From NCBI GenBank assembly GCA_002345425.1, contig DDWA01000019.1, forward strand, positions 411 to 64,410: DNA of 64,000 nt, in the 5' to 3' direction. The notes beneath the pieces are model-generated. The model saw only the letters and a list, made by a program, of their open reading frames with translations, ran no database searches and was not told where the DNA came from. The stretch comes from Bacillales bacterium UBA2298 (lineage in GTDB: Bacteria; Bacillota_I; Bacilli_A; Izemoplasmatales; Hujiaoplasmataceae). Position 1 is the first letter of the stretch. Every line of letters starts with the position of its first letter. A program made the position numbers and the translations under genes. Positions 2,495 through 48,666 of the stretch are shown here, in pieces.

Positions 2495-2833
2495 TTGGGA
2501 GTAAAAGCAGTAAGTCTAGGTGTTGTAGGAATTATTTTACCGATTTTACCAACAACACCTTTTTTGCTTTTAGCAACAATCATGTTCTCTAAATCTTCTG
2601 ATAGATTAAATTATAAATTTCAAAACTCAAAACTTTATAAAAAATACTTGGAAGATTTTATTGGAAAAAGGACAATGACTAAAAAAAGAAAATGGACCTT
2701 ATTGATTGGTGTTGATTTAATCTTGTTAGTTTCCTTAATTACTTTAGTAAATCCATATTTAAGAACTATTTTAGTAATATTGTTTCTTGTAAAACATTGG
2801 TATTTTTACAACTATGTTAAAACCAGCGATTAG
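2495..2833 (+). CDS. DUF454/YbaN-family small inner-membrane protein
   Basis: 112 aa with a TTG start. The motif GIILPILPTTPFLLLA..FSKSS.R is the YbaN signature. A second TM segment is present. Confidence 0.6.
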   Translation: MGVKAVSLGVVGIILPILPTTPFLLLATIMFSKSSDRLNYKFQNSKLYKKYLEDFIGKRTMTKKRKWTLLIGVDLILLVSLITLVNPYLRTILVILFLVKHWYFYNYVKTSD

Positions 2834-2932
2834 CGATTATTTTAATTGCTAATCTTTTCTTTATCAACAAGACAAATTTGATTTAAAAATCTCCATATTA
2901 TAGTATAATAATAACGACAGAAAAATTTCGAG

Positions 2933-3850: not shown

Positions 3851-3856
3851 ACAACA

Positions 3857-3889
3857 AATCAGCTTAATAAAATTAGCTGATTTTTTTTA
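3857..3889 (+). terminator. Rho-independent terminator after trxB
   Basis: The stem aatcagct/agctgatt is followed by a T8 run. Confidence 0.8.
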
Positions 3890-3977
3890 TCATTTTGTTG
3901 AGATACAGGTAAATATAATCGATTTTTATGATATAATTTTTTTAAAGCTAAAGAAAATTTGTTTGAGGTTATAAGAG

Positions 3978-4598
3978 ATGACGAAAAAAGATATACTAAC
4001 AAAAATATTTAGAATAATTATTATTTTATCTGCAATCATTGGTATTGTTTTAAATGCTTCAAACTCTGTAGAACCGTCAAAACAATTTATTTACTTCACC
4101 TTACAATCAAATGTTTTAGTTGCTATAGTTTATATAATATTAATTTTTTTGAAAAAAGAATCAAGAATATTCAATCTTGTAAAAAATCAAGCGACTGTAG
4201 CGATAATTTTAACTGGTTTAGTTTTTAATTTACTGTTAAGACCAGTAGTAGATGGCTATGATTATAATCCAAATACAATTTCTGATTTTTTAGTACATTC
4301 ATTAACATCATTCTTGGTTTTAATTGATTTTATTTTTTTCACAAACCATGGTAAAATTAAGAAAATTGATCCAGTATATTGGCTTATATTTCCGTTTATC
4401 TATTGGATTTTCACTATTATTTATGTCGCTTTTGGAGGTAATTTTAATGGTGAAACCTATGAATCAAATTACCCATATTTTTTATTAAATTTTAAGGAAT
4501 ACGGAATAGTTTTTTTTCTATTAGTAGTAATTTTTGTTTTAATCATCAGTTACATGCTTTTTTATATTGATAAATTAATGTTTAAACGTCGCAAGTAA
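3978..4598 (+). CDS. Polytopic membrane protein of unknown function
   Basis: 206 aa with about 6 hydrophobic segments. It has a good RBS and start context. No family is recognised with confidence. Confidence 0.5.
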   Translation: MTKKDILTKIFRIIIILSAIIGIVLNASNSVEPSKQFIYFTLQSNVLVAIVYIILIFLKKESRIFNLVKNQATVAIILTGLVFNLLLRPVVDGYDYNPNTISDFLVHSLTSFLVLIDFIFFTNHGKIKKIDPVYWLIFPFIYWIFTIIYVAFGGNFNGETYESNYPYFLLNFKEYGIVFFLLVVIFVLIISYMLFYIDKLMFKRRK

Positions 4599-4612
4599 AG
4601 TAGGAGAAGCAA

Positions 4613-5791
4613 ATGGAAATATTCAAGTATAATCAAGAACGTGTCAAAAAGATAAATCAATTTATGGAAGATTTACTTAGAGCCAAAAACACATCTGAAA
4701 AGGTTAAACTTTATAAAGAATATGAAGATGAAATTGCTAACTTAAATCCTCTAGATATTTTTTATCTAGATTTCTATAGCGATAACACTAAACTATCAAT
4801 ATCAGAAATAAAAGATAGCGCCAATAAATTCGTTAACGTTTTCCATAAGGGCATTAACAATCAAGCTGTTTTGGGCGATCATATTTTATTCAAAGAACTT
4901 TTGGAAGAAAACAAAAGAATCCAACATCACCTAGCAGAAATCAAGAACTATTATAAAAGAGAAGTTATTACCAAACACAAAAAAGAACTGCTGAAAATCT
5001 TTAATCAATGTTTACAATTTGATAAAAAGTTTAACAAATATGAAAATGTTATTTTTCCTAATTTAGAAAGTAAAATCCCTTCAAATAAACCCTTGGAAGT
5101 TTTATGGGAATTACATGATGATTCCAAAGAACTATTAAATAAAATAATTATGCTTTTACAAAATAGAGATAGTATTGAAGAAGATTTAATTAGAGAAATC
5201 GGCACTTACCACTACTTGGTTTTTGGAATCAATCAAAAAGAAGAATTGATTCTTTTACCTGTTATGAGACAGATATTATCCGATAATCAGTTATATAAAA
5301 TTTATAATGAGTGTCTAGAAATCGGATTTGTATTTAGCAACGAATCTCATGAAAAAATTGATTTAGAAGAGAAAGATAATTTTGAAGGCTATTTTACTAG
5401 CAAAACAGGTAAAGTCCCATTTAAGGAATTAATAGCGATGTTAAACCATCTACCTTTTGATATAACTTTTGTTGATAAAGATGATGTGGTTTTATATTAT
5501 AATGACAACAAAACCAGGCATTTTCCAAGGATGCCTTCAGTGATAGGACGTCTTGTGAAAAATTGTCATCCGCCTAAAAGCGTAGAAATAGTAGAAGCTA
5601 TCATCAGAGATTTCAAAGCGAAAAAGAAAGACTTTGAAGATTTTTGGATCAATTTCAAAGGTGAGTTGCTTTACATTGCTTATTATGCGGTTAGAGACGA
5701 TGAGGGAGAATACTTAGGTGTATTAGAAGTATCTCAAGATATTACTAAATTCACCACCATCAGTGGCGAAAAAAGATTACGAAATAGATAA
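4613..5791 (+). CDS. DUF438-type protein (hemerythrin-like plus PAS-like), paralogue 2
   Basis: 392 aa. The C-terminal ~110 aa align by eye with the 1278-2474 product: LPFDITFVDKDD...CHPPKSV...YYAVRD...ISGEKRL. Confidence 0.65.
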   Translation: MEIFKYNQERVKKINQFMEDLLRAKNTSEKVKLYKEYEDEIANLNPLDIFYLDFYSDNTKLSISEIKDSANKFVNVFHKGINNQAVLGDHILFKELLEENKRIQHHLAEIKNYYKREVITKHKKELLKIFNQCLQFDKKFNKYENVIFPNLESKIPSNKPLEVLWELHDDSKELLNKIIMLLQNRDSIEEDLIREIGTYHYLVFGINQKEELILLPVMRQILSDNQLYKIYNECLEIGFVFSNESHEKIDLEEKDNFEGYFTSKTGKVPFKELIAMLNHLPFDITFVDKDDVVLYYNDNKTRHFPRMPSVIGRLVKNCHPPKSVEIVEAIIRDFKAKKKDFEDFWINFKGELLYIAYYAVRDDEGEYLGVLEVSQDITKFTTISGEKRLRNR

Positions 5792-5841
5792 ATAATCAAA
5801 GCCTCTAGATTTGTTTTGTCAGTTAAAATATGTTATAATAT

Positions 5842-5867
5842 AATGATGACTTTGGTCATCATTTTTT
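5842..5867 (+). terminator. Hairpin plus T-run between DUF438-2 and the next gene
   Basis: The stem aatgatgac/gtcatcatt is followed by T6. It lies directly in front of the AAGGAG RBS of the next gene. Confidence 0.55.
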
Positions 5868-5876
5868 CATTAAGGA

Positions 5877-7100
5877 GTGATTGAATTGATAAATATCGGA
5901 AAAACACCGCTTATTAGAGCGGAAAATATCGAAAAAATACTGGGAATAAAAAAATTATACTTAAAACTGGAGGGAAACAATCCGACCAGAAGTAAATACG
6001 ACAGAATAGCTGAAGTTATTGCTAAAGCAGCTCAAGTAAAGAAAAAAAATGCGATTATTATCGACGGTGAAAAACGACTTCTAAGAGCAATGAATTATAT
6101 TTGCCAGCAAGAAAATATTCTATTGCTTGTGCCTAAATATAAAAATGATAATTGGAAAGAAAAGATAGTTGACAAAGATCAATTAATCGATTTGTCAGGT
6201 GTAAAAAAGAATGATCTTTTAGAGGTTTTAAAAAATCTAACGCTTAACAATCAAGCTTTTTTGGTAGACGAAAACTCATATAAACAATTATCGTTAATTG
6301 CTTATGAACAAATAGCTGAAGAAATCCATCTTCGTTATCAAGGTGAGATTGATAGTGTATTCTATCATAGTGATGTAGAAACAAGCTATCATGCATATCA
6401 AAATGTATTTTTAAAGAAACATCTATTAACAGGTGAAAAACTTCCTGAAATTTATGGTTCAAATATCAACAATAATCAAGTCTACCCTGAAGAAAATCTC
6501 GTGGTAATTGATGATGCATTATTAGTTGAAGCGACTACCCTATTACAAAAATACGAACATCTTAAAGTTAAACAAAAAGACGTCGCACCGTTCGCAGCTT
6601 TTTTAAAAAGTTTAAGAGCTGGAAAAATAAGTGAAGGAAGACATGTTATTGTTTTAGACACAGCTAGAAGTAGAATTAATATTAATCAAATCACTGATTT
6701 TTCAACTCTTTCTAAAAACGAATTAGTTGATTACGTCGATAATTATTTAGATCAATATTCAGATTCGAAAACTGAAGCTTTAGAAGCGATTGAACTTGCA
6801 GTTGAAAATGGATACATCTTGACAGCTTCAAGAGGAGAAGAAATTGATGGTGTATTAGTTATAGTCCATATGGGGTTTGAAAAGTTTATTCCAACATATC
6901 ATTTAGCTTACATTGGCATCAATCCCAACAGTAAAGGCCGTGGCCTTGGTTCTGAGTTGATTAAAGAAGCTATCAACTTAACAAACGGTAATATTTCTTT
7001 ACATGTTGATTTAGATAATAAGAATGCTAAAAGGTTATATAAAAAAATGGGATTTGCCCACGTTTATGATCGAATGATCTATCAAAGAACAGAAAAATAG
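5877..7100 (+). CDS. Fusion protein: degenerate PLP-dependent (Trp-synthase-beta/CysK-like) fold at the N-terminus plus a C-terminal GNAT acetyltransferase
   Basis: 407 aa. The N-terminus GKTPLIR...LKLEGNNPTRSKYDRIAEVI resembles the CysK motif NPxGSxKDR, but the Lys position is Tyr. The C-terminus has the GNAT motif GINPNSKGRGLGSELI...AKRLYKKMGF. TTG at 5886 is probably the true start. Confidence 0.55.
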   Translation: MIELINIGKTPLIRAENIEKILGIKKLYLKLEGNNPTRSKYDRIAEVIAKAAQVKKKNAIIIDGEKRLLRAMNYICQQENILLLVPKYKNDNWKEKIVDKDQLIDLSGVKKNDLLEVLKNLTLNNQAFLVDENSYKQLSLIAYEQIAEEIHLRYQGEIDSVFYHSDVETSYHAYQNVFLKKHLLTGEKLPEIYGSNINNNQVYPEENLVVIDDALLVEATTLLQKYEHLKVKQKDVAPFAAFLKSLRAGKISEGRHVIVLDTARSRININQITDFSTLSKNELVDYVDNYLDQYSDSKTEALEAIELAVENGYILTASRGEEIDGVLVIVHMGFEKFIPTYHLAYIGINPNSKGRGLGSELIKEAINLTNGNISLHVDLDNKNAKRLYKKMGFAHVYDRMIYQRTEK

Positions 7101-7154
7101 ATTTTTTAGTGTTTTTTAATTAATTTTAGAGTATAATAATTTCGGTGAATATTT

Positions 7155-8450
7155 ATGATTAAAACAGATTTTTTTAGAAGTATCGGTTATCTTGTAATCT
7201 TAAGTATTATTACAACAGTAATTTGGTACTTCGGTCTAGAACATATTGGTATAACGGTCTTTGCCGGTATAGCTATTGCAATTCTCATTGTTAATAAAAA
7301 TGGTATCGCAGTTATACCATTTTTTCTAAATATGTTATTTATGATAAGTCAAACCGAATGGTCTTTGACCCTAATTCCCAATTACTTATTCATTGCACCG
7401 ATTGCTTTGATACTTGGTTTCATCATTCACGTTATTAGATTTAGACCATCAGCCTTCTTTAATGGAAAGTTGACAAGACCATTAGTATTGTTGTTCTTAT
7501 CAATGCTTTTAACTATGTATACGATAGATTCTATCAGTCTTATTTATGCTTTTTACTTTGTAATCGGGCTCTTCTTCATGTTTGTTTATTTTTTCTTTAG
7601 AAGTTCACTTACAGGTGATAATTTAAAATATCTGATTAGACTATTCGCGATTACCGGGATTATGATATCAATTCAAGTACTAATCTTTTATTTAAGAGTC
7701 GATGATGTTGTAATGGCGCTTAAAACAAAAAACCTTGATTTAGGTTGGGGTATATCAAACTTCGTTGCTACTTATTTAATTATCTTTATTTCAGCCATGT
7801 TTTACTTTATGAAAAAGTATAAATTTCATATTTTTTGGGTAATTGTCGCTGCATTTGAAATACTGGCTTTGGTTTTCACGCTTTCACGCGGTGGAATTTT
7901 AGCTTTTTCAATTACTTTTATATTCCTGTTAATTTATCTTTTCTATGGATACGAGCATAAAGTTAAAATGGCAATCAATCTAGTAGTTGCTTTGCTAATA
8001 CTAGCTTCCTTTGTCTATTTCAAAATTGATTATTTTATTACAATATGGGAACGTTTATTTGCTGATTTCTTCGCTGATAACGGACGTTTTGATTTATGGG
8101 TAGAAGCCTTTGAAAAATTTAAAGCTCATCCATTATTCGGATCAGGTTTGTTTGCTAGGGTTAGTAATGATTATTTCGGCTTATATCACAACACAATTAT
8201 TCATACAGCCGCTACTTTAGGCTTAGTCGGTTTAACATCACTTATATGGCAGTTTGTAGTAATTATCAAAATTTTCGTCCATAAACTCACTCTAGAGAAA
8301 GCGATTTTGTTTATCGCGTTAATTGGCGCTAACATTCATGGTATGGTTGACAATGTCTATTATATGCCTCAATTTATGATTATCTTCTTTATTATCATAG
8401 CTGCAGTTGAAAACCATGATGAGGCTTTGTTAGAGGTGGAAGTAGCATGA
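7155..8450 (+). CDS. O-antigen-ligase/Wzy_C-like polytopic membrane protein
   Basis: 431 aa with at least 10 TM segments. It has the motif LSRGGILAF and a late loop FGSGLF...YHNTIIH typical of the O-antigen ligase family. Confidence 0.55.
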   Translation: MIKTDFFRSIGYLVILSIITTVIWYFGLEHIGITVFAGIAIAILIVNKNGIAVIPFFLNMLFMISQTEWSLTLIPNYLFIAPIALILGFIIHVIRFRPSAFFNGKLTRPLVLLFLSMLLTMYTIDSISLIYAFYFVIGLFFMFVYFFFRSSLTGDNLKYLIRLFAITGIMISIQVLIFYLRVDDVVMALKTKNLDLGWGISNFVATYLIIFISAMFYFMKKYKFHIFWVIVAAFEILALVFTLSRGGILAFSITFIFLLIYLFYGYEHKVKMAINLVVALLILASFVYFKIDYFITIWERLFADFFADNGRFDLWVEAFEKFKAHPLFGSGLFARVSNDYFGLYHNTIIHTAATLGLVGLTSLIWQFVVIIKIFVHKLTLEKAILFIALIGANIHGMVDNVYYMPQFMIIFFIIIAAVENHDEALLEVEVA

Positions 8451-17768: not shown

Positions 17769-18919
17769 ATGAAACCATGCATCGCAATTGACATATCCAA
17801 AGGCAAGAGTTACTACCAAGGATTCATATCATTGAATGAACCATTTACAAAAACGAAATCAATTCATCATGATAAAGTTGGATACGATGAATTGATATCT
17901 GTAGGCATGACTATGAAAGAAAAATACGGAGATATCGATTACGTATTTGAATCAACAGGAATCTATCACAAGGGATTACAAAATCGTTTAGAGACAGAAA
18001 AGCAAAAATATATTATCTTAAATCCATTGGAAGCAGCGAAGATCCGTAAAAGCAAACTCCGTTCTACAAAGACCGACAAAAAGGATTGTCAGAGTATCGC
18101 ATTAGCTTATTATACGAGAGAACATAAGCCACACAATAAAAAAGATAAACTCCATGAAACACTCCAAATCATGAATCGGGAATATAAGTTCTTAATTCAA
18201 ATGTTGCGCCAAATGAAGGTGAGATTTATAACAATCCATATACCGAAGTTCCAATGGTATTACTAAAGAAATATCCACATCCTGAAGATATTAAAAACAA
18301 GTGTGAAGAAACAATAGCCAAATATCTAGAGAGCAACCATTCATCATCACGCATTTTTATTAAATGAAACTTGAAAAGTAAAATTGTACGCTGAAAACAC
18401 AGCTTCAAGATGCCATAGAGATGGGTATGAAGTGGAAGCTCTATCTTCACTAGTAAAACACCTTGAAACACAACAACAAGAAGTAAATCAATGTTTAGAT
18501 AGGATGAAAGGATTAGTGAAAGACAATCCATATTATGATCAACTTCAATCCATACCAGGAATGGTTCAATTCTAGCAATCAGATTATTTGCGGAACTTGG
18601 AGATTTAGGCCGTTTCTCACATTCAAGAAAACTCGTTGCCTATGCCGGAATCGATCCAATCGTATACCAATCAGGGTAAAGAACCGGCGAGCATCAATCC
18701 ATTACCAAAAAAGGAAACAAGAACTTAAGATGTCTTTTGTATTTGGCGGTAAATGCAAATATCAGAAGCAAGAAACCAAATTCCATTATTGACTTCTACA
18801 ACAAAAAGCGGCAACAAGCCAACCCACTGGCATATCGTGTCGCCGTTATAGCTTGTGCAAATAAATTGCTTAGAATAATCTACTCAATGCACAAGTCTGG
18901 AAAGTACTATAAATACTAA
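17769..18919 (+). pseudogene. IS110-family (DEDD) transposase/recombinase, disrupted
   Basis: The N-terminus is intact with IAIDISK (D8), FESTG (E61) and KTDKKD (D103/D106). The frame then moves 0 to 2 (about 18230), 2 to 0 (about 18340-18384) and 0 to 2 (a 1-nt deletion in IPG(I)GSILA near 18558). An in-frame TAA at 18677-18679 follows AYAGIDPIVYQSG. The C-terminal part continues as GEHQSITKKGNKNLR...ANKLLRIIYSM. Confidence 0.85.
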
Positions 18920-18943
18920 TCTAATTACATTATAACGCAATTT

Positions 18944-18966
18944 ATCCGATTTGACATCGGATTTTT
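18944..18966 (+). terminator. Hairpin plus T-run downstream of the transposase frame
   Basis: The stem atccgat/atcggat is followed by T5. Confidence 0.6.
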
Positions 18967-19100
18967 GGTTTTACCTAAAATATCTATAAATTATTATTAT
19001 AAAAGTCATTGACTTTATTTATCTAGTTTTTATTCGCTTTTTTAATCAAAGCAATTGAAGGAAACCGCTTTCTATGATATCATTAATTTGAGGTGATAAT

Positions 19101-19826
19101 ATGAAGTTAGAAGAGGTAGAAGCGCTTAAAGAGCAATTAGTCAACAAGAAAAAAACAATGACTAAAGCTGAACTTGCAGAAATATGCGATGAATTTGACA
19201 AAAGATTTATCTATGAATCAACAAGTTTTGATAATGATGATTTTACTTATGAAGATGTTTGTTTCTTGTTGGAGGATCATTCACGCGAATTCCCAGATAA
19301 AAAAGCCAATCGAAGAAAGGCGATAATTAATAATTATCACGCTATTAACATGGTTCATCGTCTTGTTGACAAGGGTACTCAATTGAATGAAAGCACTGTT
19401 AAGGATTTACACCAAGTTTTGGTTGAAGGCATTATTACTGGTGGCGTTTATCGAACAAGAGATTTATTCATATTAGGAGCTAAACACGTTCCGCCAACTT
19501 ATCTTAAAATCTTTAAAAAGATGGATGCTTATTTTAATGACTTAAACAATTCAAATTTAAAAGGACTAGAAAAAGCAGCTTTTGCTCATTTGCAATTGTT
19601 GAAGATTTATCCTTTTATGGATGCTAATGGAAGATTAGCTAGATTATTACTCAATTATCAACTGGAATTAGACGGTTATTTGCCAGTATCAATCACCAAA
19701 GAACAACGCGACTTATATTTTAAAAATATTGATGAGTATAAAATCAATAAAAAGATTGAGCCGTTCACTGAATTTTTAGCGGATTTAGAAGTGGCAAGGA
19801 TTAAAGAATTTATAGAGAGAGATTAA
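19101..19826 (+). CDS. Fic/DOC-fold protein with a degenerate active-site motif
   Basis: 241 aa. The core motif reads YPFMDANGRLAR where the canonical form is HPFx(D/E)GNGRxxR (His to Tyr, Gly to Ala). The GAGGTGA RBS is good. Confidence 0.75.
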   Translation: MKLEEVEALKEQLVNKKKTMTKAELAEICDEFDKRFIYESTSFDNDDFTYEDVCFLLEDHSREFPDKKANRRKAIINNYHAINMVHRLVDKGTQLNESTVKDLHQVLVEGIITGGVYRTRDLFILGAKHVPPTYLKIFKKMDAYFNDLNNSNLKGLEKAAFAHLQLLKIYPFMDANGRLARLLLNYQLELDGYLPVSITKEQRDLYFKNIDEYKINKKIEPFTEFLADLEVARIKEFIERD

Positions 19827-35697: not shown

Positions 35698-36624
35698 ATG
35701 AGAAAGTATAATTTAGGAATTGATATAGGCGGAACGTCAATTAAGATTGGCTTATTTGATTTAGACGGTAATCTACGTGACGTTTATAGCTTGAAAACTA
35801 ATATACTAGAAAATGGAAAATACATTCTAACTGATATTGCAAATCTACTTAAAAAGAAACTAAATGTTTCGGAAATTAGAGCTATAGGTTTTGGCGTACC
35901 AGGACCTGTGGCTAAAAACATAATTATTAATTGTGTCAACCTTGGTTGGCAAAGAAAAGATATTGTTACTGAATTCAAAGAAGTAATCGGGGATAATGAA
36001 ATTTTAATTCGCGTTGCTAATGATGCAAATTTGGCAGCTGCTGGAGAAATCTATAAAGGTGTTGCAAGTGGTTATGTTAATGCATTTATGGTGACTTTAG
36101 GAACCGGAATCGGCGGTGGAGTTATTATTGACGGTAGAGTTGTTGACGGAATTAATGGTGTTGCCGGAGAAATTGGTCACACTCATATTGATGATTTGTT
36201 TGATCTCAAATGCAATTGTGGCAAAAGCGGTTGTTTAGAAACTGTTGCTTCAGCCACAGGAATTGTCCGCTTGGCTAAAGAATACTTAAAACAAAGCGAT
36301 AAACCATCCATTTTAAGAAATTTTCCTGATTTCAGTGCAAAAAAAGTTATTGATTTAGCCAAAGCAAATGATGAATTAGCGCAAGAAATCATTAGTAAAT
36401 CAATGGAATATCTAGCTAGAGTCCTAGCTAAAGTTTCTTATATCATAAATCCAGATATCTTCATAATCGGCGGGGGTATTTCCAATGCCGGGAATTTCAT
36501 CATTGAACAGATAACTAAGCATTACTACCCTTTAGTTATGCCATTTATCAAACACACAAATTTTGAAATTGCCACTCTAGGAAATGAAGCGGGTATGTTT
36601 GGAGCGTGTTATTTAATAAAATGA
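35698..36624 (+). CDS. glcK: ROK-family glucokinase
   Basis: 308 aa. Motifs seen: GIDIGGTSIK, LGTGIGGG and the Zn motif CNCGKSGCLE. Confidence 0.85.
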   Translation: MRKYNLGIDIGGTSIKIGLFDLDGNLRDVYSLKTNILENGKYILTDIANLLKKKLNVSEIRAIGFGVPGPVAKNIIINCVNLGWQRKDIVTEFKEVIGDNEILIRVANDANLAAAGEIYKGVASGYVNAFMVTLGTGIGGGVIIDGRVVDGINGVAGEIGHTHIDDLFDLKCNCGKSGCLETVASATGIVRLAKEYLKQSDKPSILRNFPDFSAKKVIDLAKANDELAQEIISKSMEYLARVLAKVSYIINPDIFIIGGGISNAGNFIIEQITKHYYPLVMPFIKHTNFEIATLGNEAGMFGACYLIK

Positions 36625-37253
36625 TTAATATAACTAAGTATTCAAGCAAAAATATGGATGTTAACACCTATATATTAGCGAAAGAAAACCAAGCATTAGT
36701 CATTGATCCGGGATTTAATGGTAAAACAGTTATCAACCACTGTGAAAATCATAATCTCAGAATTGAAGCTGTGGTTCTTACACATGGTCATTATGATCAT
36801 ATTAGAGATTTAACTTTATTGATTAATAATAATGACTTGAAAATATACATTTACATTGATGAATCTGATTTCTTATATAATCCTAATTTAAATTTGTCTT
36901 CAATGTTTAAAGATGATATTATTCTCAATAAGGAAATCAAAGTCACTAAAGTTGAAGACGGTCAAATCATTGAATTTAACAAGGAAAATTTAAAAGTAAT
37001 TCATTTGCCTGGCCATACAAAAGGGTCGATAGGACTATTATACAACCAACATTTCTTTTCGGGAGATACGCTTTTTTATGACAGCATTGGTAGAACTGAT
37101 TTGCCGACCGGAAATTCCGGCAAGATATTTACCTCTCTTAAGAAAATTAAAACGACACTCTCGAAAAATACTATCGTATATCCTGGACATGGTAAAGGCG
37201 GTAGATTACTTGATATTTTAAAAACGAATCCTTATTTTTCTAATTTAAATTAA
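36621..37253 (+). CDS. MBL-fold metallo-hydrolase
   Basis: 210 aa from the ATG at 36621, which forms an ATGA overlap with the glcK stop. The motif is THGHYDH. Confidence 0.8.
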   Translation: MINITKYSSKNMDVNTYILAKENQALVIDPGFNGKTVINHCENHNLRIEAVVLTHGHYDHIRDLTLLINNNDLKIYIYIDESDFLYNPNLNLSSMFKDDIILNKEIKVTKVEDGQIIEFNKENLKVIHLPGHTKGSIGLLYNQHFFSGDTLFYDSIGRTDLPTGNSGKIFTSLKKIKTTLSKNTIVYPGHGKGGRLLDILKTNPYFSNLN

Positions 37254-40922: not shown

Positions 40923-42047
40923 ATGGAAAAACGTGATTACTATGAGGTGCTTGGTATTAGCAAGACTGCCTCTGATGAAGAAGTCAAAAAAGCATATCGA
41001 AAATTAGCAAAAAAATATCATCCCGATGTTTCAACTGAACAAAACGCAGAGGCTAAGTTTAAAGAAGTTCAAGAGGCTTATGATGTTTTGAGCGACCCGA
41101 CAAAAAGAGGTCAGTATGATCAATTTGGTCACCAAGCTGCTAACGCAGGATTTGGCCAAGGAGGTTTTGGTGGTGCTGGTTTTGAAGGGTTTGATTTTGG
41201 TGATATTTTCAGTGCATTTTTTGGTGGCGGTCAAAGAACCACTCGGCAAACAAACAGACCAAGAAAAGGCTCAGATATTCAAAGACGAATGTCAATTACA
41301 TTTGAAGAATCAATATTTGGCAAAACTGAAAAAATCAAAGTTCCGATATATGATGAATGCCATGTCTGCCATGGATTAGGCGCAGAGAGCAAAAAAGATA
41401 TCAAAGTTTGTTCACAATGTGGTGGTTCTGGTACGGTAATTATGGAACAACAAACATTGTTTGGTAGAACCCAGACAAGAACGACTTGTCCTAACTGTAA
41501 AGGAACTGGAAAAGAATTTATTAATAAATGCCCTAACTGTAATGGTGAAGGTGTTGAACGAGTTAGTAAAGAGGTTGAAATACGCGTTCCAAAAGGTATT
41601 GAAACTGGTCAACAAATTCGCCTAGAAAGTTTCGGAAATAAAGGCGCAAGCGGTGGTCCAAACGGTGATTTGTATATCGTATTTGAAGTCAAGCCTTCAG
41701 ATAAATATATTCGTGAAGGCGACGACATCATTGTTAATGTGCCGATAACATTTGCCCAAGCAGCTCTAGGAACAGAAATAAAAGTAGATACAGTGTACGG
41801 AGCGGTAATGCTTAAAATTCCGCCAGGAACTCAATCCGAATCAAAGTTCAGATTAAAAGGCAAGGGTGCTCCAAATGTTAGAACTAAGCAACTTGGAGAT
41901 CAACACGTCATAATTACAGTTGTTACTCCACAAAAGCTTAACAATCAACAAAAAAAAGCCTTTGAGGAACTATTGAGAGTTGAAGATGATGCACTGCCAC
42001 AGAAAAATTGGTGGGATAGATTCAAATCAAATTTTAATAAATCATAA
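40923..42047 (+). CDS. dnaJ: Molecular chaperone DnaJ
   Basis: 374 aa. It has a J-domain with HPD, a G/F-rich region and four CxxCxGxG repeats. Confidence 0.97.
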
Positions 42048-42052
42048 ACTAT

Positions 42053-42080
42053 AGGTAGTCGATTTGACTACCTTTTTTTA
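42053..42080 (+). terminator. dnaJ terminator
   Basis: The stem aggtagtc/gactacct is followed by T7. Confidence 0.85.
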
Positions 42081-42140
42081 TTGAATTTTCTTATAAAAAA
42101 TTGATCAATAAAAAAAATATAAATAATTTTTTATTTGCTG

Positions 42141-42169
42141 TTTACAATCAATATGCAAAGAGTTATAAT
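42141..42169 (+). promoter_or_regulatory. Sigma-A-type promoter (TTTACA-17-TATAAT) of the PadR/SMC-like operon
   Basis: The hexamers lie at 42141-42146 and 42164-42169, with a 17-nt spacer. Confidence 0.6.
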
Positions 42170-42249
42170 ATAAACATGTTATGTATAAACAAGAAATCTA
42201 TAATGTAATTATGTATAATATGATAATACATAAACACGTTATATATAAA
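42170..42249 (+). repeat. Two 20-nt direct repeats, ATAAACAyGTTATrTATAAA (42170-42189 and 42230-42249), plus a 21-nt imperfect palindrome ATGTATAATAtGATAATACAT (42211-42231); candidate PadR operators
   Basis: The repeats match at 18 of 20 positions and their starts are 60 nt apart. The first abuts the -10 hexamer. The second abuts the RBS. Confidence 0.5.
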
Positions 42250-42262
42250 AGGAGGTGAGATA

Positions 42263-42613
42263 ATGACTAACTCAGGCGAATTTGTCAGAGGTTTTACTGA
42301 TTATATTATTCTATCAATTCTATCTAAATTTGATAGTTATGGATATGAAATGTCAAAGATTATTGAATTTGTAAGCGAAAATAATATTCAATTAACCGAA
42401 GCGACTTTATATATTGCCTTAAAAAGATTATTAAATGACGGCAAAATAAATACCTATACCGGCAAAAACAAAAAAGGCATGGGTCGACGTTATTATCAAA
42501 TTACTCCAAAAGGTAAAAAATCAATTAAAGATTTCCGTAAAGATTGGATAATGATTGAAAATACTCTTTCATCATTAGTTGGCGGCAATTTTGAATATTA
42601 TCGAGAAAGTTAA
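42263..42613 (+). CDS. PadR-family transcriptional regulator
   Basis: 116 aa. The motifs ILSILSKFDSYGYEMSKII...TEATLYIALKRLLNDGKI...RRYYQITPKGKK form the PadR winged helix. A GGAGGTGA RBS precedes it. Confidence 0.85.
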   Translation: MTNSGEFVRGFTDYIILSILSKFDSYGYEMSKIIEFVSENNIQLTEATLYIALKRLLNDGKINTYTGKNKKGMGRRYYQITPKGKKSIKDFRKDWIMIENTLSSLVGGNFEYYRES

Positions 42614-42625
42614 GGAAGTGAGATT

Positions 42626-44047
42626 ATGAATATATTTGATATAGTTCCAAAACAATTTTTTAGTGTTTTATCTAGTAAAAATCATCGAGTTTATGTTTCC
42701 TGTATTCTTGAACTTTTTAAAGTTTATGAACAAGGTTCTATTTTAGGTATTGATCGCAATATCGCTAGACAAGCTCTAGTAGATTATTTAGATATAAATC
42801 CACTTGAAGAGGAGTTAGAAGAAGATGACAACGAAATTAGTGAAAGCGGAGAAACGTTAATTACTAACCGTGACCGTGCTAATCAAATTTTAAGAAGATT
42901 AGAAGAATGCGAATGGATAGACATTGATGTCAATAATGATTATGAAGAAATTTTAAATTTTAGAGATTACGCAATAACAATTATAGAAGCTTTAAAAGAG
43001 ATTGCAAATGACAGTTATTATGGAGAAGAAAGCGAAGCCCATGAATTTAGAGGATATATCTACACAGTTTATTCTCTGTTATCGAATGATCATGGTGAAT
43101 ATGCCTTAACGCTCGATCAAGTATATAAAAATACCATTGCTTTTGTGAGAGAAATTCGTAAACTGGATTCAAGATTAAAATATTATATCCGTACAATTGT
43201 TGATAATAGTGAAATTAAGGATTTGATCAATCTTTTAGTCAATTACAAAGTTGAATTAGTTGACCATGCATATCGACGCTTAAAGACAAGTGACAATATC
43301 AATAAATACCGCACGGAAATTGTTAAAAAATTGGAAGAGTATCAACAAAATCCTTTAATCATGGAGATGATTTCCAAAGAATATCTAATCAAAAATCATA
43401 ATGATCCTGATATTGCAATGATTAAAGCTAATAAAAAAATTGATGATATAATCGATATCTACAACTCAATATCTTACATAATCGATGAAATTGATAATAA
43501 GAATAAAATTTATGTTAACACGACAATCGCTAAAATTAAATTCCTATTGTCAGATGATGAAAATATCATTACTAAATTAAGTAAAATTCTTACATATACC
43601 GGAAATCACGTTCGTAAGAATCGCACAGTGAAAGCACTAAACGATATCGCGCCGCTATTTAATATTAATTCTTACCAGCAACTATCTTCAAGATCTGTTT
43701 ATACTCCAAGAGGAATTTACAAACATATTGAAGCTCAATATTTAGTTGAGAACAACGGTGCTCCAGATCGAAGATTGCAAGAAGAATTCTATGATGAATT
43801 TGAAACAAATTATTCTGAAGATGTTATTGCTAAATATTTAAAAGCTTACTTTCGCAAAAATAAATTGATTAGAGCATCAGAAATATTAAGAGATGATATG
43901 AGTGACGAATCAATTATCAGGCTGTTATACATTTTAGTATATGCAGGTGAAGAATTAGATTACTCAATTAATCCGCTATTTGAAAAAATAAACAACAAAC
44001 GATTCAATCTAGATGATTTTGAAATAATTAGGGGGTACCAAGAATGA
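42626..44047 (+). CDS. JetA/MksF-like (kleisin-type) subunit candidate of an SMC-like complex
   Basis: 473 aa, starting 12 nt after padR. The assignment rests on size, position as the first of three coupled genes, and an acidic linker (EEELEEDDNEISESGE). I recognise no catalytic motif. Confidence 0.45.
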   Translation: MNIFDIVPKQFFSVLSSKNHRVYVSCILELFKVYEQGSILGIDRNIARQALVDYLDINPLEEELEEDDNEISESGETLITNRDRANQILRRLEECEWIDIDVNNDYEEILNFRDYAITIIEALKEIANDSYYGEESEAHEFRGYIYTVYSLLSNDHGEYALTLDQVYKNTIAFVREIRKLDSRLKYYIRTIVDNSEIKDLINLLVNYKVELVDHAYRRLKTSDNINKYRTEIVKKLEEYQQNPLIMEMISKEYLIKNHNDPDIAMIKANKKIDDIIDIYNSISYIIDEIDNKNKIYVNTTIAKIKFLLSDDENIITKLSKILTYTGNHVRKNRTVKALNDIAPLFNINSYQQLSSRSVYTPRGIYKHIEAQYLVENNGAPDRRLQEEFYDEFETNYSEDVIAKYLKAYFRKNKLIRASEILRDDMSDESIIRLLYILVYAGEELDYSINPLFEKINNKRFNLDDFEIIRGYQE

Positions 44048-44649
44048 TTTTAGAAAAATATGATGATTTTAATTTAGGACAAAAACAGTTGTTTGCTAAA
44101 ACCTGCCTTAAGTTGCTGCAAAACAGTTTTATAGCTAGAGATAAAGAAGATAACAAAGAAATGTATTACTTCATTCTAAGTTTTAAAAACTATTTTGATG
44201 AATATTTTGAAGTAATGGATTTTGAAGTTGTACTAGATCGAGAAATGGGCGCAATTCAACTTGTTAATCGTGAAGGCAATAATCTCTTGCGTCTTAAAAA
44301 AGAGGAAACTTTGGTACTGCTAATTCTGAGAATTCTTTATCATCAACATTTAGTAAGGACATCAGTAAATGATAATGTTGTCATTAAAGTTGATGAGATT
44401 CACCAATATTACGATTCGCTTGAGCTCAAGAAGAAAATCAATAAAACAGATTTAGTAAAAATCTTAAGAACATACCGAAAATTAAATTTGATAGATCCGT
44501 TAGGAGACATCACTAAAGCTAACACGAAAATTGTAATATATCCGACCATTCTCTTGGCAATCAACACCCAAGCAATTAACGATGTTTATAATCTTGTCGC
44601 CAATATTGAAGATAGAAATGAAGGTGAAGAAAATGAAGAAACTGACTAA
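44044..44649 (+). CDS. JetB/MksE-like (KITE, DUF4194-type) subunit candidate
   Basis: 201 aa. Its start forms an ATGA overlap with the upstream gene. The size, the acidic C-terminal tail and the pattern ...YFDEYFEVMDFEVVLDREMGAIQLVN...LRLKKEETLVLLILR fit the DUF4194 layout as I recall it. Confidence 0.45.
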   Translation: MILEKYDDFNLGQKQLFAKTCLKLLQNSFIARDKEDNKEMYYFILSFKNYFDEYFEVMDFEVVLDREMGAIQLVNREGNNLLRLKKEETLVLLILRILYHQHLVRTSVNDNVVIKVDEIHQYYDSLELKKKINKTDLVKILRTYRKLNLIDPLGDITKANTKIVIYPTILLAINTQAINDVYNLVANIEDRNEGEENEETD

Positions 44650-47600
44650 AGTCAGATTGATCAATTGGCATTATTTTGCCAATGAAACAATTTATGTTAA
44701 AAATAACACTCTGATAACTGGGCAAAATGCTACAGGGAAATCAACAATAGTTGATGCGATTGCCTTTGTTTTAACTGCAGGCGACCAAATTTTTAATATC
44801 GCTGCTAATGAAAAAAGCAAAAGAGACCTGCGTGGATATGTCAAATGTAAACTAGGAACTGACACTCAAGAATATTTACGGGACACTGATACAACAGGAC
44901 ATATTGCTTTAGAATTCTTTGATGAAAGAAAAGAACAATACTTCACTATCGGTACAGTTATTGATGTTTTCGGCGATATCGTAACTCCAAAGGTAATTTT
45001 CTATGAATATCAAGATGCAATGCAAGAATCACTATTTATTGATGATGAAGGCCGTATTTTAACAACAGTTAACTTTAAAAAAACCAAACAAGCTAAGAAA
45101 ATCTTCCTAACAAGAAGAGAAGCAAAATTAGCTTTTAGATCACTATTTGGTTCAATTAACGAAAATTACTTTTCTCTTTTACCTAAAGCTTTAGCTTTTA
45201 AACCGATTCCTGATGTTAAAGACTTTATTTATCGATATTTACTAGAAGAAAGAGAACTTGACGTTGAACCGATAAAAGAATCAATTCATGCTTATAGAGA
45301 TTTAGAAGCCACTTTAAAGATAATCAAAGAAAAAGTTAATGATCTTGACCAAATCAAACATCTTTATGAAGAAATCAAAAATAACCAAGATCAAAAACAT
45401 TTCTATGAATACTTTTTACAATTGCTCGAAGTAGAATCTTTAAAGAATAAGATTGATCAAATCAACAAAAAACAAGAAAAGATTACAATCGCTAAAGAGC
45501 AAAACCAAGTGCTAATTAATGAAATCAATGCACAATTAGATATCCTAGAAGAAAGATCTCGTGAAATCTATTCAATGCTCAAAAATAATGACAGTTTCAA
45601 AGCTGCAGAGATTTACGACAAAGAAATAGCAGAATTGACGAAGAAAATTGATCAACAAGTTGAATTAAGAAATTATTCTGTCACCAAAGTCAAAAAGATG
45701 AAACAAGTCATGAATGAGCTAAAAAGCGAGCATAACAACAAGGTATACAATGAACTCATTAAAATAGACTTAGATAAAATCGATGACAATAATTATGAAG
45801 ATCAAAAACTAAAACTTATTACCATTAACAAAACTCTAAATGAAGTAGAAGACTCTAATAAAGTTAATCTTGGTAGATATCAACAAGTTAGAGATGACAT
45901 TGTCAAAGAAATTAATGAAGTTTACTTAACTTTAAAAGATTTAGAAAACAATCAATTAAGATACAATCCAATGATTAAACGTCTTCAAAATAAAATTGAA
46001 GAAGGAGTTTTAAAAAGATATGGCAAAGAAGTAAAGGTTCATATCCTTTGTGAATTACTTGAAATCACTGATAGTGATTGGGCTAACACAATCGAAGATT
46101 ATCTAGGACAACAACGGTTTAATTTGATTGTCGAACCAAGATACTTTGATGAAGCTTTAAATGTTTACAATCAAATTAAAGACACTTTGGATATATATGG
46201 AATTGGTTTAGTTAATACCAAGAAAATTCAACATTTTACCAATTTTAGAGATAACTCTTTAGCTTCTATTATCACATCAGACAATATTGATGCTGAACAT
46301 TATATCAATATGATCTGCGGTAACTTGATAATGGTAGATGAGGTTCAAGACTTAGAAAAGTATCCGCAAGCTATCACGAAAAGCGGTATGGTTTACCGTT
46401 CTTATACAGTTAGATCTTTATACAACAAAACTGAAAAACCTTTTATCGGTAAGAAAGCCAAGAGTTCTCAGTTAGAAAATTGGAGAGCTAAAGCAAAAGA
46501 ATTAAAGGATAAACATCAAGAAGTATCAGACAAAATACAAATGATAACTGAAGAAAACAACGCTATAGCTGCATTGAATTTAGAAGGATTCATCAATATG
46601 CTAAAAACTTATTATTCTTTAGATAGTTTAAAAGAAAAACGCAAGGTTTTAGCATTAAAGAAAAAGAATGTCCCTCAAGAAGACTTAAGTCAATTAAGAC
46701 AAGAATACGAAGATGTTAAAGATGAAATCAGAGATTATAACGCAAATCGTCAAAAAGCTTATCAAAAACAAGGCAAACTCGAAAGCGATGAATTAAAGTC
46801 TCATGAAGAACTTTTAGAAATTGAAAATTCAATTAAAGAACTTGAAGCTGTTCTCGATAAAAACGATAATTTAGTCGTTAAAAAAGAAGCTAAAGATCTC
46901 TATGAAATTGAATTAAAGAAAACTTCAAACATAACAAACATCTTTGAAGAGTATCAGAGCAAGATTCAATCAGAACTTAACAACATAATCAATCTCGAAG
47001 ATTCTTTAAAATCTAAACAAATCCGTTACACATCAAAATATAACTTGAGTTATAAATACGGAGTTGAGTACATGCAAGAATATTTGGATGAACTAGACAA
47101 ATTAGTTAAGTCTGAATTAGTTAAATATGAAACAAAAGTTAGAGAAGCGAGAGAAACGGCTGAAAGATTATTTAAAGAAGACTTTATCGCTAAATTAAGA
47201 AACTATATTGTATCCGCTCAAGAAGAGATCTCTAAGATCAATGAAACGTTAAAAACAATTCATTTCGGTGAAGACACATATGAGTTTATCTTCCCTAAAT
47301 CAAAAGAATACGGCGAATATTATGATATGGTTCTAAGTGATGAATCAATGAAAACCGGTGAAGAAATCTTTAATTATGATTTTGAAATGAAATATCAAAG
47401 ACAGTTGGAAGAATTGTTTATCAATCTCGCATCTGAAGATTTGAATTCCCAAGGTTCTGTCAACAAGTTTACTGATTACCGTACTTACATGGATTATGAT
47501 ATTTCCATCTCAAATACCGCTGGTGAACGTTATCTTTATTCTAAAGTCTTTAAGGAAAAGAGTGGGGGAGAAACGCAAGTGCCATTCTATGTTGCGACCC

Positions 47601-47872
47601 TTGCATCATTCGTTAGAGTTTTCGAGCAAGCATCTAGAGGTGTTGGTCATGATTCAATTGGTCTAATATTGTTTGATGAAGTGTTCGATAAAATGGATAC
47701 CTCAAGAATCAAAGCAATGATGAAATTTATTAAACAATTGCCAGTTCAAATCCTTCTAGCAACACCACCTCAAAAAATGGAAGTGTTATCAAAGTATACT
47801 GATACAACAATCGTTACCTTAAGAGATGGAAAAATTGCTAGAGCTTACGAAGTAATCAAAACAGATTTATAA
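44633..47872 (+). CDS. JetC/MksB-like SMC-family ATPase
   Basis: 1079 aa from the ATG at 44633. A GAAGGTGA RBS lies upstream and the gene overlaps the upstream gene by 17 nt. Walker A is GQNATGKST (44720-44746). A long charged, heptad-rich middle region follows. The C-terminal head has the SGGETQ signature and the LILFDEVFDKMD Walker B. Confidence 0.75.
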   Translation: MKKLTKVRLINWHYFANETIYVKNNTLITGQNATGKSTIVDAIAFVLTAGDQIFNIAANEKSKRDLRGYVKCKLGTDTQEYLRDTDTTGHIALEFFDERKEQYFTIGTVIDVFGDIVTPKVIFYEYQDAMQESLFIDDEGRILTTVNFKKTKQAKKIFLTRREAKLAFRSLFGSINENYFSLLPKALAFKPIPDVKDFIYRYLLEERELDVEPIKESIHAYRDLEATLKIIKEKVNDLDQIKHLYEEIKNNQDQKHFYEYFLQLLEVESLKNKIDQINKKQEKITIAKEQNQVLINEINAQLDILEERSREIYSMLKNNDSFKAAEIYDKEIAELTKKIDQQVELRNYSVTKVKKMKQVMNELKSEHNNKVYNELIKIDLDKIDDNNYEDQKLKLITINKTLNEVEDSNKVNLGRYQQVRDDIVKEINEVYLTLKDLENNQLRYNPMIKRLQNKIEEGVLKRYGKEVKVHILCELLEITDSDWANTIEDYLGQQRFNLIVEPRYFDEALNVYNQIKDTLDIYGIGLVNTKKIQHFTNFRDNSLASIITSDNIDAEHYINMICGNLIMVDEVQDLEKYPQAITKSGMVYRSYTVRSLYNKTEKPFIGKKAKSSQLENWRAKAKELKDKHQEVSDKIQMITEENNAIAALNLEGFINMLKTYYSLDSLKEKRKVLALKKKNVPQEDLSQLRQEYEDVKDEIRDYNANRQKAYQKQGKLESDELKSHEELLEIENSIKELEAVLDKNDNLVVKKEAKDLYEIELKKTSNITNIFEEYQSKIQSELNNIINLEDSLKSKQIRYTSKYNLSYKYGVEYMQEYLDELDKLVKSELVKYETKVREARETAERLFKEDFIAKLRNYIVSAQEEISKINETLKTIHFGEDTYEFIFPKSKEYGEYYDMVLSDESMKTGEEIFNYDFEMKYQRQLEELFINLASEDLNSQGSVNKFTDYRTYMDYDISISNTAGERYLYSKVFKEKSGGETQVPFYVATLASFVRVFEQASRGVGHDSIGLILFDEVFDKMDTSRIKAMMKFIKQLPVQILLATPPQKMEVLSKYTDTTIVTLRDGKIARAYEVIKTDL

Positions 47873-47898
47873 AACAACCGATTTCGGTTGTTTTTTTC
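47873..47898 (+). terminator. Terminator closing the SMC-like operon
   Basis: The stem aacaaccga/tcggttgtt is followed by T7, immediately after the stop codon. Confidence 0.85.
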
Positions 47899-47940
47899 TT
47901 GTTTTATTAAATTATATGTTATGATATTAATGGTGATAAA

Positions 47941-48666
47941 ATGCAAAGATACTTTGTGAAAGCAAATCAAATTAATAATAATTTAATTACAATAATCGAT
48001 AAAGACGCACACCACATCAAAGATGTGATGCGTTTTAAACATAGAGATTTAGTAATTGTAAATACTGAAGACGGAGATTTATACCAAGCTAAGATTATTG
48101 AATTTACTAAAAAGGAAGTCATATTGGAAATAACTTCTAAGATGGACAATGATTATAAACCTTTAAATTTAGTTTTAGGTATAAGTCTAATTAAGAAGGA
48201 TAATTTTGAACTTATCTTACAAAAAACAACTGAACTTGGAATTAGAAAAATAATTCCTCTTAAAACCGAGAGGTCCATTATCAAAATTGATGATTTTGAT
48301 AAGAAGAAACTACGTTATCAGACAATCGTCAAAGAAGCTTCCGAACAATCAGAAAGAACGATTCTGCCGATTATAGCAGATGAAACAGAGATTACAAATA
48401 TCGATTTGTCTGAGTATGATTATAAATTTATTTGTTTTGCTAGAGAAAATAGTAATTTAATTAACAATGAACTAAAGAGTTATCAACCTAATAAAAAAGC
48501 TTTGGTTTTAATCGGACCTGAAGGTGGTTTCTCACCAAGTGAAATTACTAAATATCTTAAGTTAGGTTTTACTACCGTCTCCTTAGGAAAAACTATCTTA
48601 CGTGCTGAAACGGCAGCTATTTATGTAACATCGCTATTCAGATATCTCGAGGAGGTATATAAATGA
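47941..48666 (+). CDS. rsmE: 16S rRNA (uracil1498-N3)-methyltransferase
   Basis: 241 aa. It has an N-terminal PUA-like region and the C-terminal motifs GPEGGFS and LRAETA. Synteny with mtaB supports the call. Confidence 0.85.
   Translation: MQRYFVKANQINNNLITIIDKDAHHIKDVMRFKHRDLVIVNTEDGDLYQAKIIEFTKKEVILEITSKMDNDYKPLNLVLGISLIKKDNFELILQKTTELGIRKIIPLKTERSIIKIDDFDKKKLRYQTIVKEASEQSERTILPIIADETEITNIDLSEYDYKFICFARENSNLINNELKSYQPNKKALVLIGPEGGFSPSEITKYLKLGFTTVSLGKTILRAETAAIYVTSLFRYLEEVYK

Follow-up and report, generated by a model that had tools for sequence, protein, structure and literature searches.

A PadR-Linked Type I Wadjet Operon without an Adjacent JetD Gene in the Core Genome of Izemoplasmatales

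The padR-jetABC Operon

The DNA considered here is a 64,000-nucleotide stretch of contig DDWA01000019.1 from Bacillales bacterium UBA2298, a member of the order Izemoplasmatales; the whole stretch will be called the window. Between dnaJ and rsmE it carries padR-jetABC, a single, tightly coupled plus-strand operon in which the gene for a PadR-family regulator precedes those for the kleisin (JetA), the KITE subunit (JetB) and the SMC (structural maintenance of chromosomes)-like ATPase (JetC) of a type I Wadjet system. The Toprim nuclease of such systems, JetD (DUF3322 plus DUF2220), is not encoded with them. The coordinates of the operon and of its signals are collected in Table 1.

The four reading frames follow each other closely. 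padR and jetA are 12 nt apart, jetA and jetB share an ATGA stop/start overlap (44044-44047) with an AGGGGG ribosome-binding site (RBS) before it, and jetB and jetC overlap by 17 nt (44633-44649). The gene coordinates, the two overlaps and the gap had been given in a preliminary description of this DNA, made from the sequence alone, and all were found again when the sequence was re-read. The ATGA overlap between jetA and jetB was also seen in 44 of the JetA orthologue loci. The start of jetC was set at the ATG at 44633, although the longest open reading frame (ORF) begins at 44582, because the orthologous proteins begin with MKKLTK.

The preliminary description had also credited the operon with its own promoter, a PadR gene and a strong terminator placed directly after the ATPase gene and followed by rsmE, and these features are indeed present: the two promoter hexamers are spaced by 17 nt, the 116-aa product of the first cistron matches PF03551, and a terminator-like hairpin (47871-47894) with a T run after it separates jetC from rsmE, beyond which Pfam domains identify mtaB. 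An Rfam scan of positions 41900-48100 returned no RNA family at E ≤ 0.1. The GC content of the operon is not anomalous, and neither integrases nor transposases nor repeats were seen to flank it among the ORFs and domain lists of the window.

Table 1. Genes and sequence signals of the padR-jetABC locus (positions in the window)
Feature	Position	Strand	Description
terminator-like hairpin closing the hrcA-grpE-dnaK-dnaJ unit	42053-42073	+	9-bp stem with 4 GC pairs, T run
sigma-70-type promoter, TTTACA-17 nt-TATAAT	42141-42169	+	11/12 consensus match
operator-like array	42179-42248	.	about five head-to-tail 15-bp units, core TTATRYATAA; between -10 box and RBS
padR RBS	42250-42255	+	sequence AGGAGG
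padR	42263-42613	+	116-aa single-domain (LmrR-like) PadR-family winged-helix regulator; first cistron
jetA	42626-44047	+	type I Wadjet kleisin (DUF5716/PF18982), 473 aa
jetB	44044-44649	+	KITE subunit (DUF4194, MukE/MksE-like), 201 aa
jetC	44633-47872	+	SMC-like ABC ATPase, 1079 aa
terminator-like hairpin and T run right after the jetC stop	47871-47898	+	10-bp stem, loop of 4, T-rich tail
rsmE	start 47941	+	PF04452 plus PUA_4; next gene after the jetC terminator

Identity of the Encoded Proteins

The 473-, 201- and 1079-aa proteins are clear JetA, JetB and JetC proteins of type I Wadjet. A match with JetA, JetB and JetC had first been seen in their sizes and gene order, and the assignment is now carried by Pfam and PADLOC profiles for all three. 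The 473-aa protein matches PF18982 over almost the whole profile (2.6e-73; protein residues 30-469, profile positions 2-433 of 434) and PADLOC JetA1 (5e-108). The 201-aa protein matches DUF4194 (PF13835, 1.8e-29) and PADLOC JetB1 (1e-57), while its score against the MksE family PF21980 (25.4 bits) stays under the cut-off of 27. The 1079-aa protein is matched end to end by PADLOC JetC1 (1.9e-302), contains the Pfam domains AAA_29 and SbcC_Walker_B, and aligns over its full length with the solved JetC of E. coli GF4-3 (PDB 9qxt/8as8).

No match to the MksF, MukF or MukB families was obtained with the operon proteins, whose best matches are Wadjet families. No NCBIfam model matches JetA or JetB, and the models TIGR02677-02680, against which the preliminary description had proposed to check the operon proteins, gave no match with them. 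Sequence searches of the PDB with JetA and JetB returned nothing at E ≤ 0.01, and of the three subunits JetC alone matched a solved structure; an AlphaFold2 model of JetA computed from an 18-sequence alignment was too poor for a fold search (predicted local distance difference test score, pLDDT, 53.7; predicted template modelling score, pTM, 0.27).

JetC consists of an N-terminal head, coiled-coil arms, a hinge at approximately residues 450-600 and a C-terminal head. The split ATP-binding cassette (ABC)/SMC head recognised in the preliminary description is real, with the Walker A motif GQNATGKST (G30-T38) in the N-terminal part, and the signature SGGETQ (S977-Q982) and the Walker B motif LILFDEVFDKMD (L1011-D1022) in the C-terminal part. 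All three motifs are unchanged in the 53-55 JetC orthologues compared, and along JetC conservation is highest in the heads and in the hinge.

The regulator matches PF03551 at 2.9e-16, with 59.6 bits against a cut-off of 27. Its relatives in the PDB comprise 42 PadR/LmrR entries, the best of which are about 110-130 aa long and reach E-values down to 9e-19.

Absence of JetD from the Window and Related Loci

The absence of a JetD or MksG gene after the ATPase gene, where the terminator and rsmE follow, had been noticed from the window and extends to the related loci. A hidden Markov model (HMM) of JetD was built from three type I JetD proteins encoded by Cohnella, Butyrivibrio and Rossellomorea plasmids; its positive controls, which were its own training genes, were recovered at E-values of 1e-184 to 1e-211. 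When the window and 179 related loci, 2.36 Mb in all, were translated in six frames and searched with the same model, no match at E ≤ 10 was obtained. The domain lists of the called genes of the window contain no JetD/DUF2220/DUF3322 domain, no SMC and no ScpA or ScpB, and no further SMC-like ORF was met in the 2.36 Mb of fetched loci. In about 80 related genomes, domain lists and the JetD HMM detected no JetD at distances of up to approximately 8-10 kb from the operon, as far as the contigs reach.

The position in which JetD would be expected is well defined, as the canonical type I loci of the Cohnella, Butyrivibrio and Rossellomorea plasmids have jetD directly 3' of jetC in all three cases, whereas no jetD stands there in any of the approximately 50 members of the clade that have sequence 3' of jetC. 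As a Wadjet system the operon is incomplete, since its defining nuclease was sought and was not found in the window or in the related loci.

Conservation at the dnaJ-rsmE Locus

A scan for JetA in one genome per GTDB species yielded 79 loci with a JetA relative, 65 of which, with JetA at least 59% identical, are at the level of the Izemoplasmatales. At this level PadR is encoded immediately 5' of JetA in 62 of the 65 species-level loci, the other three ending at a contig edge, and dnaJ lies upstream on the same piece of DNA in 45. Downstream, rsmE or mtaB is present in 37 of the 38 loci that have at least 1.5 kb after jetC. The entire order of dnaJ, padR-jetABC and rsmE/mtaB was found on one contig in 31 loci, with a few intervening genes in some of them. 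The jetA, jetB and jetC frames are all intact in most of the approximately 80 genomes, and a split or truncated jetB or jetC ORF occurs in single drafts (e.g., loci L050 and L068).

A second sample was seeded with DnaJ and consisted of one metagenome contig and four contigs picked from a DnaJ protein search (67-72% identity); the metagenome matches listed for DnaJ came mostly from distant Firmicutes, with one contig at the level of the Izemoplasmatales. In all five contigs of this level padR-jetABC is present downstream of dnaJ, with between one and four unrelated genes separating the two in four of the five; two of them have rsmE further downstream in the stretch that was fetched.

The preliminary description had regarded padR-jetABC as an accessory cassette inserted at this site, and had itself named conservation of the four genes at this position throughout the lineage as the finding that would point to a housekeeping condensin. 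Such conservation is what the PadR-JetA pairs and the complete loci display, and because it holds across the order the reading as an accessory module is not supported; the congruent distances and low substitution ratios described below point the same way.

The proposal that the operon fills the slot of prmA fared better, since the order dnaJ-prmA-rsmE does occur in more distant Firmicutes, with PrmA confirmed by Pfam in four metagenome loci. In the closest outgroups, dnaJ is followed directly by rsmE and mtaB (L094, L097, L098). Three lineages outside the Izemoplasmatales have jetABC downstream of dnaJ without PadR: the two adjoin in L179, proS lies between them in L072, and in L178 the gap holds a gene for an acyltransferase and a small ORF. 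Because dnaJ and rsmE are direct neighbours in the closest outgroups, and because dnaJ-linked, PadR-less jetABC genes exist in three other lineages, the insertion of the operon between dnaJ and rsmE is real but ancient.

A separate observation concerns one Izemoplasmatales contig (L172), where an IS605 OrfB/TnpB gene (Cas12f1-like_TNB, positions 18240-19529) has been inserted 3' of jetC.

Evolutionary Signature

Identities and distances were compared in 25 genomes having all of the genes. The mean pairwise identity of JetA, JetB and JetC is 67-69%, which falls between the values for DnaJ (74%) and HrcA (77%) on one side and those for MtaB (58%) and RsmE (44%) on the other; PadR is 58-92% identical across the order, with a mean pairwise identity of 69%. 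The pairwise distances of JetA, JetB and JetC correlate with those of HrcA (Spearman rho 0.69-0.88) and of DnaJ (0.56-0.73), and this correlation is equal to or higher than that of the housekeeping genes among themselves. The ratio of nonsynonymous to synonymous substitution rates (dN/dS), taken from close pairs with unsaturated dS, is 0.004-0.04 for JetABC, 0.02-0.08 for DnaK and DnaJ, and 0.08-0.21 for RsmE.

No relatives of the operon were found on IMG/VR viral contigs; plasmid-borne type I JetC proteins are 25-28% identical, the closest of them reaching 28%. Thus, the congruent distances, the low dN/dS, the invariant ATPase motifs and the unremarkable GC content establish vertical descent under strong purifying selection. 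This is the signature of a core machine that is inherited vertically under strong constraint, unlike that of a defence island; defence systems are described in the literature as fast-evolving and spread by horizontal gene transfer (HGT).

PadR and the Putative Operator Array

The upstream regions of 60 orthologous operons of the Izemoplasmatales share a common design. The -35 and -10 hexamers are common to most of them, and downstream of the -10 box stand two to five TTATRYATAA units, usually two or three, which keep a strict 15-bp period and reach the RBS; neighbouring units were spaced by 15 nt 64 times and by 30 nt 20 times. Within the window, the two-unit pattern is confined to the array in front of padR, with 6 overlapping matches against 0.39 expected. 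Across the loci, 229 matches to the pattern fall within the 130 nt preceding padR, with 61 of the 62 PadR-bearing loci contributing, as compared with 4 elsewhere in 1.14 Mb, and none was found upstream of jetA in the lineages that have no PadR. This exclusive co-occurrence of the array with PadR supports both binding and autorepression, so that the array at 42179-42248 is presumed to be a set of PadR binding sites through which the regulator would repress its own operon.

Wider JetD-less Relatives

Among relatives at 32-50% identity, jetABC occurs with neither JetD nor PadR, and each lineage has conserved the core locus that contains it. In the Anaeroplasmataceae the locus reads ychF-jetABC-(ylmE)-sepF-ylmH-ileS, in an Acholeplasmatales metagenome-assembled genome (MAG) it reads jetABC-groES-groEL, and in a further lineage gyrB-gyrA-...-serS-...-jetABC. 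At least two orders of wall-less Bacilli are covered by the JetD-less clade. As a whole, the type I JetA family has 635 members at E ≤ 1e-3 among 1.84 billion cluster representatives, and identity to the JetA of the window declines gradually through 60, 44, 40, 36 and 33% to less than 30%, the relatives from Haloplasma and Lachnospiraceae standing at 33%.

A jetA-jetB-jetC array without jetD, followed by a gamma carbonic anhydrase gene, is also present at positions 2759-8351 of a 251-kb replicon of Agathobacter rectalis (L091, NZ_CP143948.1). The JetC of this unrelated lineage is about 23% identical. Because such a lineage also has jetABC without jetD, nuclease loss from jetABC loci may have happened more than once.

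Two other loci deserve mention. In the Bacillales MAG locus L179, a gene with an HTH_3 domain and one for a type III restriction-modification (R-M) methylase come after dnaJ-jetABC, at 13738-15017. The chromosome of a cultured member of the Izemoplasmatales, Hujiaoplasma nucleasis zrk29, appears to carry the operon.

Proposed Function and Alternative Explanations

The explanation favoured here, to which we give a probability of somewhat more than one half (about 0.55), is that padR-jetABC stems from a type I Wadjet system, forms a nuclease-free SMC operon with autoregulation, was domesticated into the vertically inherited core genome of the Izemoplasmatales and acts on cellular DNA. JetC as the SMC ATPase, JetA as the kleisin and JetB as the KITE subunit would form the customary dimer-of-motors complex and, once loaded on DNA, would extrude loops with ATP. 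As no JetD is encoded with the complex, the plasmid-cleavage step of Wadjet would be impossible; the intact ATPase together with the absent nuclease would make JetABC a loop extruder that is unable to cut. It would then handle the DNA of its own cell in the manner of MksBEF or MukBEF, serving to fold, segregate or maintain the chromosome. The most economical assumption, given that jetABC behaves as part of the core genome, is that it works on the DNA of the cell itself, and a chromosome-organising function is most likely in view of the evolutionary signature and of the genomic neighbours, which are dnaK, sepF or gyrBA. The operon would be transcribed from its own sigma-70 promoter, and binding of PadR to the palindrome array would hold the complex at a set level, probably one that is low or signal-dependent.

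Several points weigh against this explanation. A constitutive condensin is not usually placed under a dedicated repressor with three to five operators, an arrangement that would fit a gated, conditional function too. In complete systems, JetD docks by its aCAP domain on the larynx of JetC at F919 (bioRxiv 10.1101/2023.11.03.565488). This anchor residue of E. coli JetC aligns, in an alignment of low identity, with F913 of the protein studied here, and the position is hydrophobic in all orthologues (F in 41, L in 10, M in 3), so that JetC may have kept a site around F913 on which a partner could dock. Furthermore, one related lineage (L179) has a type III R-M methylase gene shortly after jetC, and the sample from which universality was judged is mostly JetA-seeded, the unbiased DnaJ-seeded sample being n = 5.

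A rival idea is that the operon is still a Wadjet-like defence against extrachromosomal DNA such as plasmids, in which JetABC would sense small circular DNA by complete extrusion and then call in a nuclease whose gene lies at another place in the genome, be it a JetD or an unrelated enzyme, with PadR acting as the gate. We consider it unlikely. In its favour, each of the three sensing subunits has clear homology to type I Wadjet, and PadR with its multiple operators suggests conditional expression; vertical descent, fixed core positions and a dN/dS of 0.004-0.04, on the other hand, are unlike what is described for defence systems. The hydrophobic residue kept at the F919-equivalent position would suit a nuclease acting in trans, as would the nuclease richness reported for the Izemoplasmatales (PMC10470597). 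Against these stand the placement of jetD after jetC in every canonical type I locus fetched and in none of the approximately 50 clade members, and the lack of any JetD in the 2.36 Mb of flanks. Wadjet restriction has a limit of about 100 kb, and the 47.9-kb phage genome known from H. nucleasis is below that size. That strain, which appears to bear the operon, is reported to maintain this chronic phage genome extrachromosomally (PMC10470597), an observation that speaks against this defence explanation and against the one discussed next, as does the lack of JetD in all flanks. The PadR gate and the R-M methylase adjoining jetC in L179 agree weakly with both.

A quite unlikely alternative is that JetABC restricts small extrachromosomal circles, be they plasmids, phage episomes or circular DNA that these DNA-foraging bacteria have taken up, without cutting them, by entrapment, compaction or silencing, for which the action of Smc5/6 on viral episomes offers an analogy. 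JetABC alone is able to extrude loops (PMC10889018) and has been seen on plasmid DNA in what is presumably a stalled state (bioRxiv 10.1101/2023.11.03.565488); an intact ATPase without a nuclease gene in the searched loci would suit such a mechanism, and the order is known to degrade and take up extracellular DNA (PMC10470597, PMC8289736). No bacterial precedent was found in the literature searched, and the sites by sepF, gyrBA and dnaK suit core cell-cycle functions better. The evolutionary signature does not tell this alternative apart from a chromosomal role.

A more far-reaching version of the domestication explanation holds that a type I Wadjet lost its nuclease and became the main chromosomal SMC, partly or wholly replacing Smc-ScpAB in what would be a second MukBEF-like event, independent of the first, far younger and still recognisable from sequence. 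It is regarded as doubtful. Perhaps such a replacement would reach beyond the Izemoplasmatales to the related Anaeroplasmataceae and other wall-less Bacilli, and in the Izemoplasmatales PadR and the operator array would then set the SMC dosage. Neither SMC nor ScpAB is mentioned in the papers on the genomes of Izemoplasma, Hujiaoplasma and Acholeplasma.

That the operon is a mobile or accessory cassette, such as a defence island, which entered between dnaJ and rsmE in recent times is very improbable. The operon does have its own promoter, regulator and terminator, and it breaks a gene order that is otherwise collinear with that of other Firmicutes, but it occupies the same dnaJ-to-rsmE region throughout the order, at distances congruent with those of its neighbours, has a normal composition, and is devoid of flanking integrases, transposases and repeats and of viral or close plasmid relatives; order-wide synteny and congruent distances refute recent acquisition. 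Lastly, a decaying JetABCD remnant that drifts to loss after the loss of jetD, an idea favoured by the absence of jetD only, is refuted as a pseudogene reading by the selection analysis and has almost no probability left, given frames intact in most of the approximately 80 genomes, invariant catalytic motifs and a dN/dS of at most 0.04.

Other Features of the Window

On the plus strand, positions 37376-63105 hold hrcA-grpE-dnaK-dnaJ ... rsmE-mtaB ... rpsU-phoH-ybeY-cdd-era-recO-glyS-dnaG-rpoD-trmK-NIF3, an order that mirrors the yqe-yqf region of B. subtilis, save that padR-jetABC stands in place of prmA. Just upstream, between a ROK kinase gene and hrcA, a metallo-beta-lactamase (MBL)-fold hydrolase is encoded (36606-37253, plus strand), with Pfam matches to PF23023 (Anti-Pycsar_Apyc1) and Lactamase_B. 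It is kept at the same position in many Izemoplasmatales loci, at 35-73% identity.

The sole trace of a mobile element seen in the window is a 165-aa transposase fragment of the IS110 family (DEDD_Tnp_IS110; 17769-18266, plus strand). It is followed by a gene for a Fic-domain protein (19101-19826, plus strand), which lies upstream of an lplA-gcvTHP cluster. On the minus strand, positions 9904-12579 encode an extracytoplasmic function (ECF)-type sigma factor (Sigma70_r2/r4_2, 175 aa) and then two proteins of about 350 aa without a Pfam match, possibly an anti-sigma module.

Significance

The preliminary description had called the arrangement one not known to be described, and the literature searched agrees with it: neither a natural JetD-less lineage of type I Wadjet nor a linkage of PadR with Wadjet was found described. 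The same is true of the presence of such a JetD-less lineage in the Izemoplasmatales or Anaeroplasmataceae. What is already known are nuclease-free Mks systems and the hypothesis that MukBEF arose from a JetABCD-like ancestor.

Loop extruders for defence and for chromosome organisation have been proposed to be interchangeable (bioRxiv 10.1101/2022.10.04.510915), and no natural intermediate between JetABCD immunity and a housekeeping SMC was found in the literature searched. If the domestication explanation is true, the clade described here would be such an intermediate, having type I Wadjet proteins, no nuclease gene in or near the operon, a fixed place in core loci and an evolution as slow as that of DnaK and DnaJ. 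Cultured members exist, H. nucleasis zrk29 among them, so that the repurposing of a plasmid-sensing SMC would be directly testable. The questions that this opens are what changes when such a complex is repurposed, whether it coexists with Smc-ScpAB or replaces it, and why one order evolved a repressor with multiple operators. In addition, the annotation label "Wadjet anti-phage system protein" is probably misleading for this clade.

Comparison with Known Systems

The closest systems by sequence are the type I Wadjet JetABCD loci, as in E. coli GF4-3 (PDB 8as8/8bfn/9qxt), in Bacillus and on plasmids. The three protein families, their order and the gene coupling are the same, and in both the JetC protein is an SbcC/MukB-like ATPase of approximately 1080-1100 aa. 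The differences are that the operon described here has no jetD adjacent to it or in its flanks and has a padR gene with an operator array in front, and that it is chromosomal, core, vertically inherited and slow-evolving, rather than patchy or plasmid-borne.

The regulator resembles the subfamily-2 PadR proteins of Bacillus and Lactococcus (LmrR, PadR) in its single winged-helix domain of about 110-130 aa, in being encoded by the first cistron of a presumably repressed operon, and in the AT-rich palindromes near the promoter. The target differs, being an SMC complex here and a drug pump or phenolic-acid enzymes there, and so does the operator, which is a 15-bp-periodic, multi-unit array in contrast to a single site. 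The PadR operator consensus is ATGT-N8-ACAT.

MksBEF systems without MksG, such as MksBEF of Pseudomonas aeruginosa and mycobacterial MksB, are also three-gene kleisin/KITE/SMC operons without a nuclease gene, and nuclease-less MksBEF is reported to support chromosome organisation (PMC11329512). The kleisin of the present operon, in contrast, is a type I Wadjet JetA (PF18982), and its JetB falls under the MksE cut-off. MksBEF is described as scattered by HGT, whereas the clade studied here has descended vertically across an order. No linkage of MksBEF with PadR was found described in the literature searched.

MukBEF of the gamma-proteobacteria, which co-evolved with MatP, SeqA and others, is alike in being a Wadjet/Mks-related SMC that has turned into the vertically inherited housekeeping complex of one lineage. 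It replaced Smc-ScpAB (PMC10586767), and nuclease-free MksBEF and MukBEF both organise chromosomes; for MukBEF, descent from an ancestor resembling JetABCD has been put forward (bioRxiv 10.1101/2022.10.04.510915). In comparison, the sequences described here are still recognisably those of type I Wadjet, so that their domestication would be much younger or less diverged. By sequence, the padR-jetABC operon appears to stand outside the Mks and Muk families, whereas in function it would be closest to MksBEF or MukBEF.

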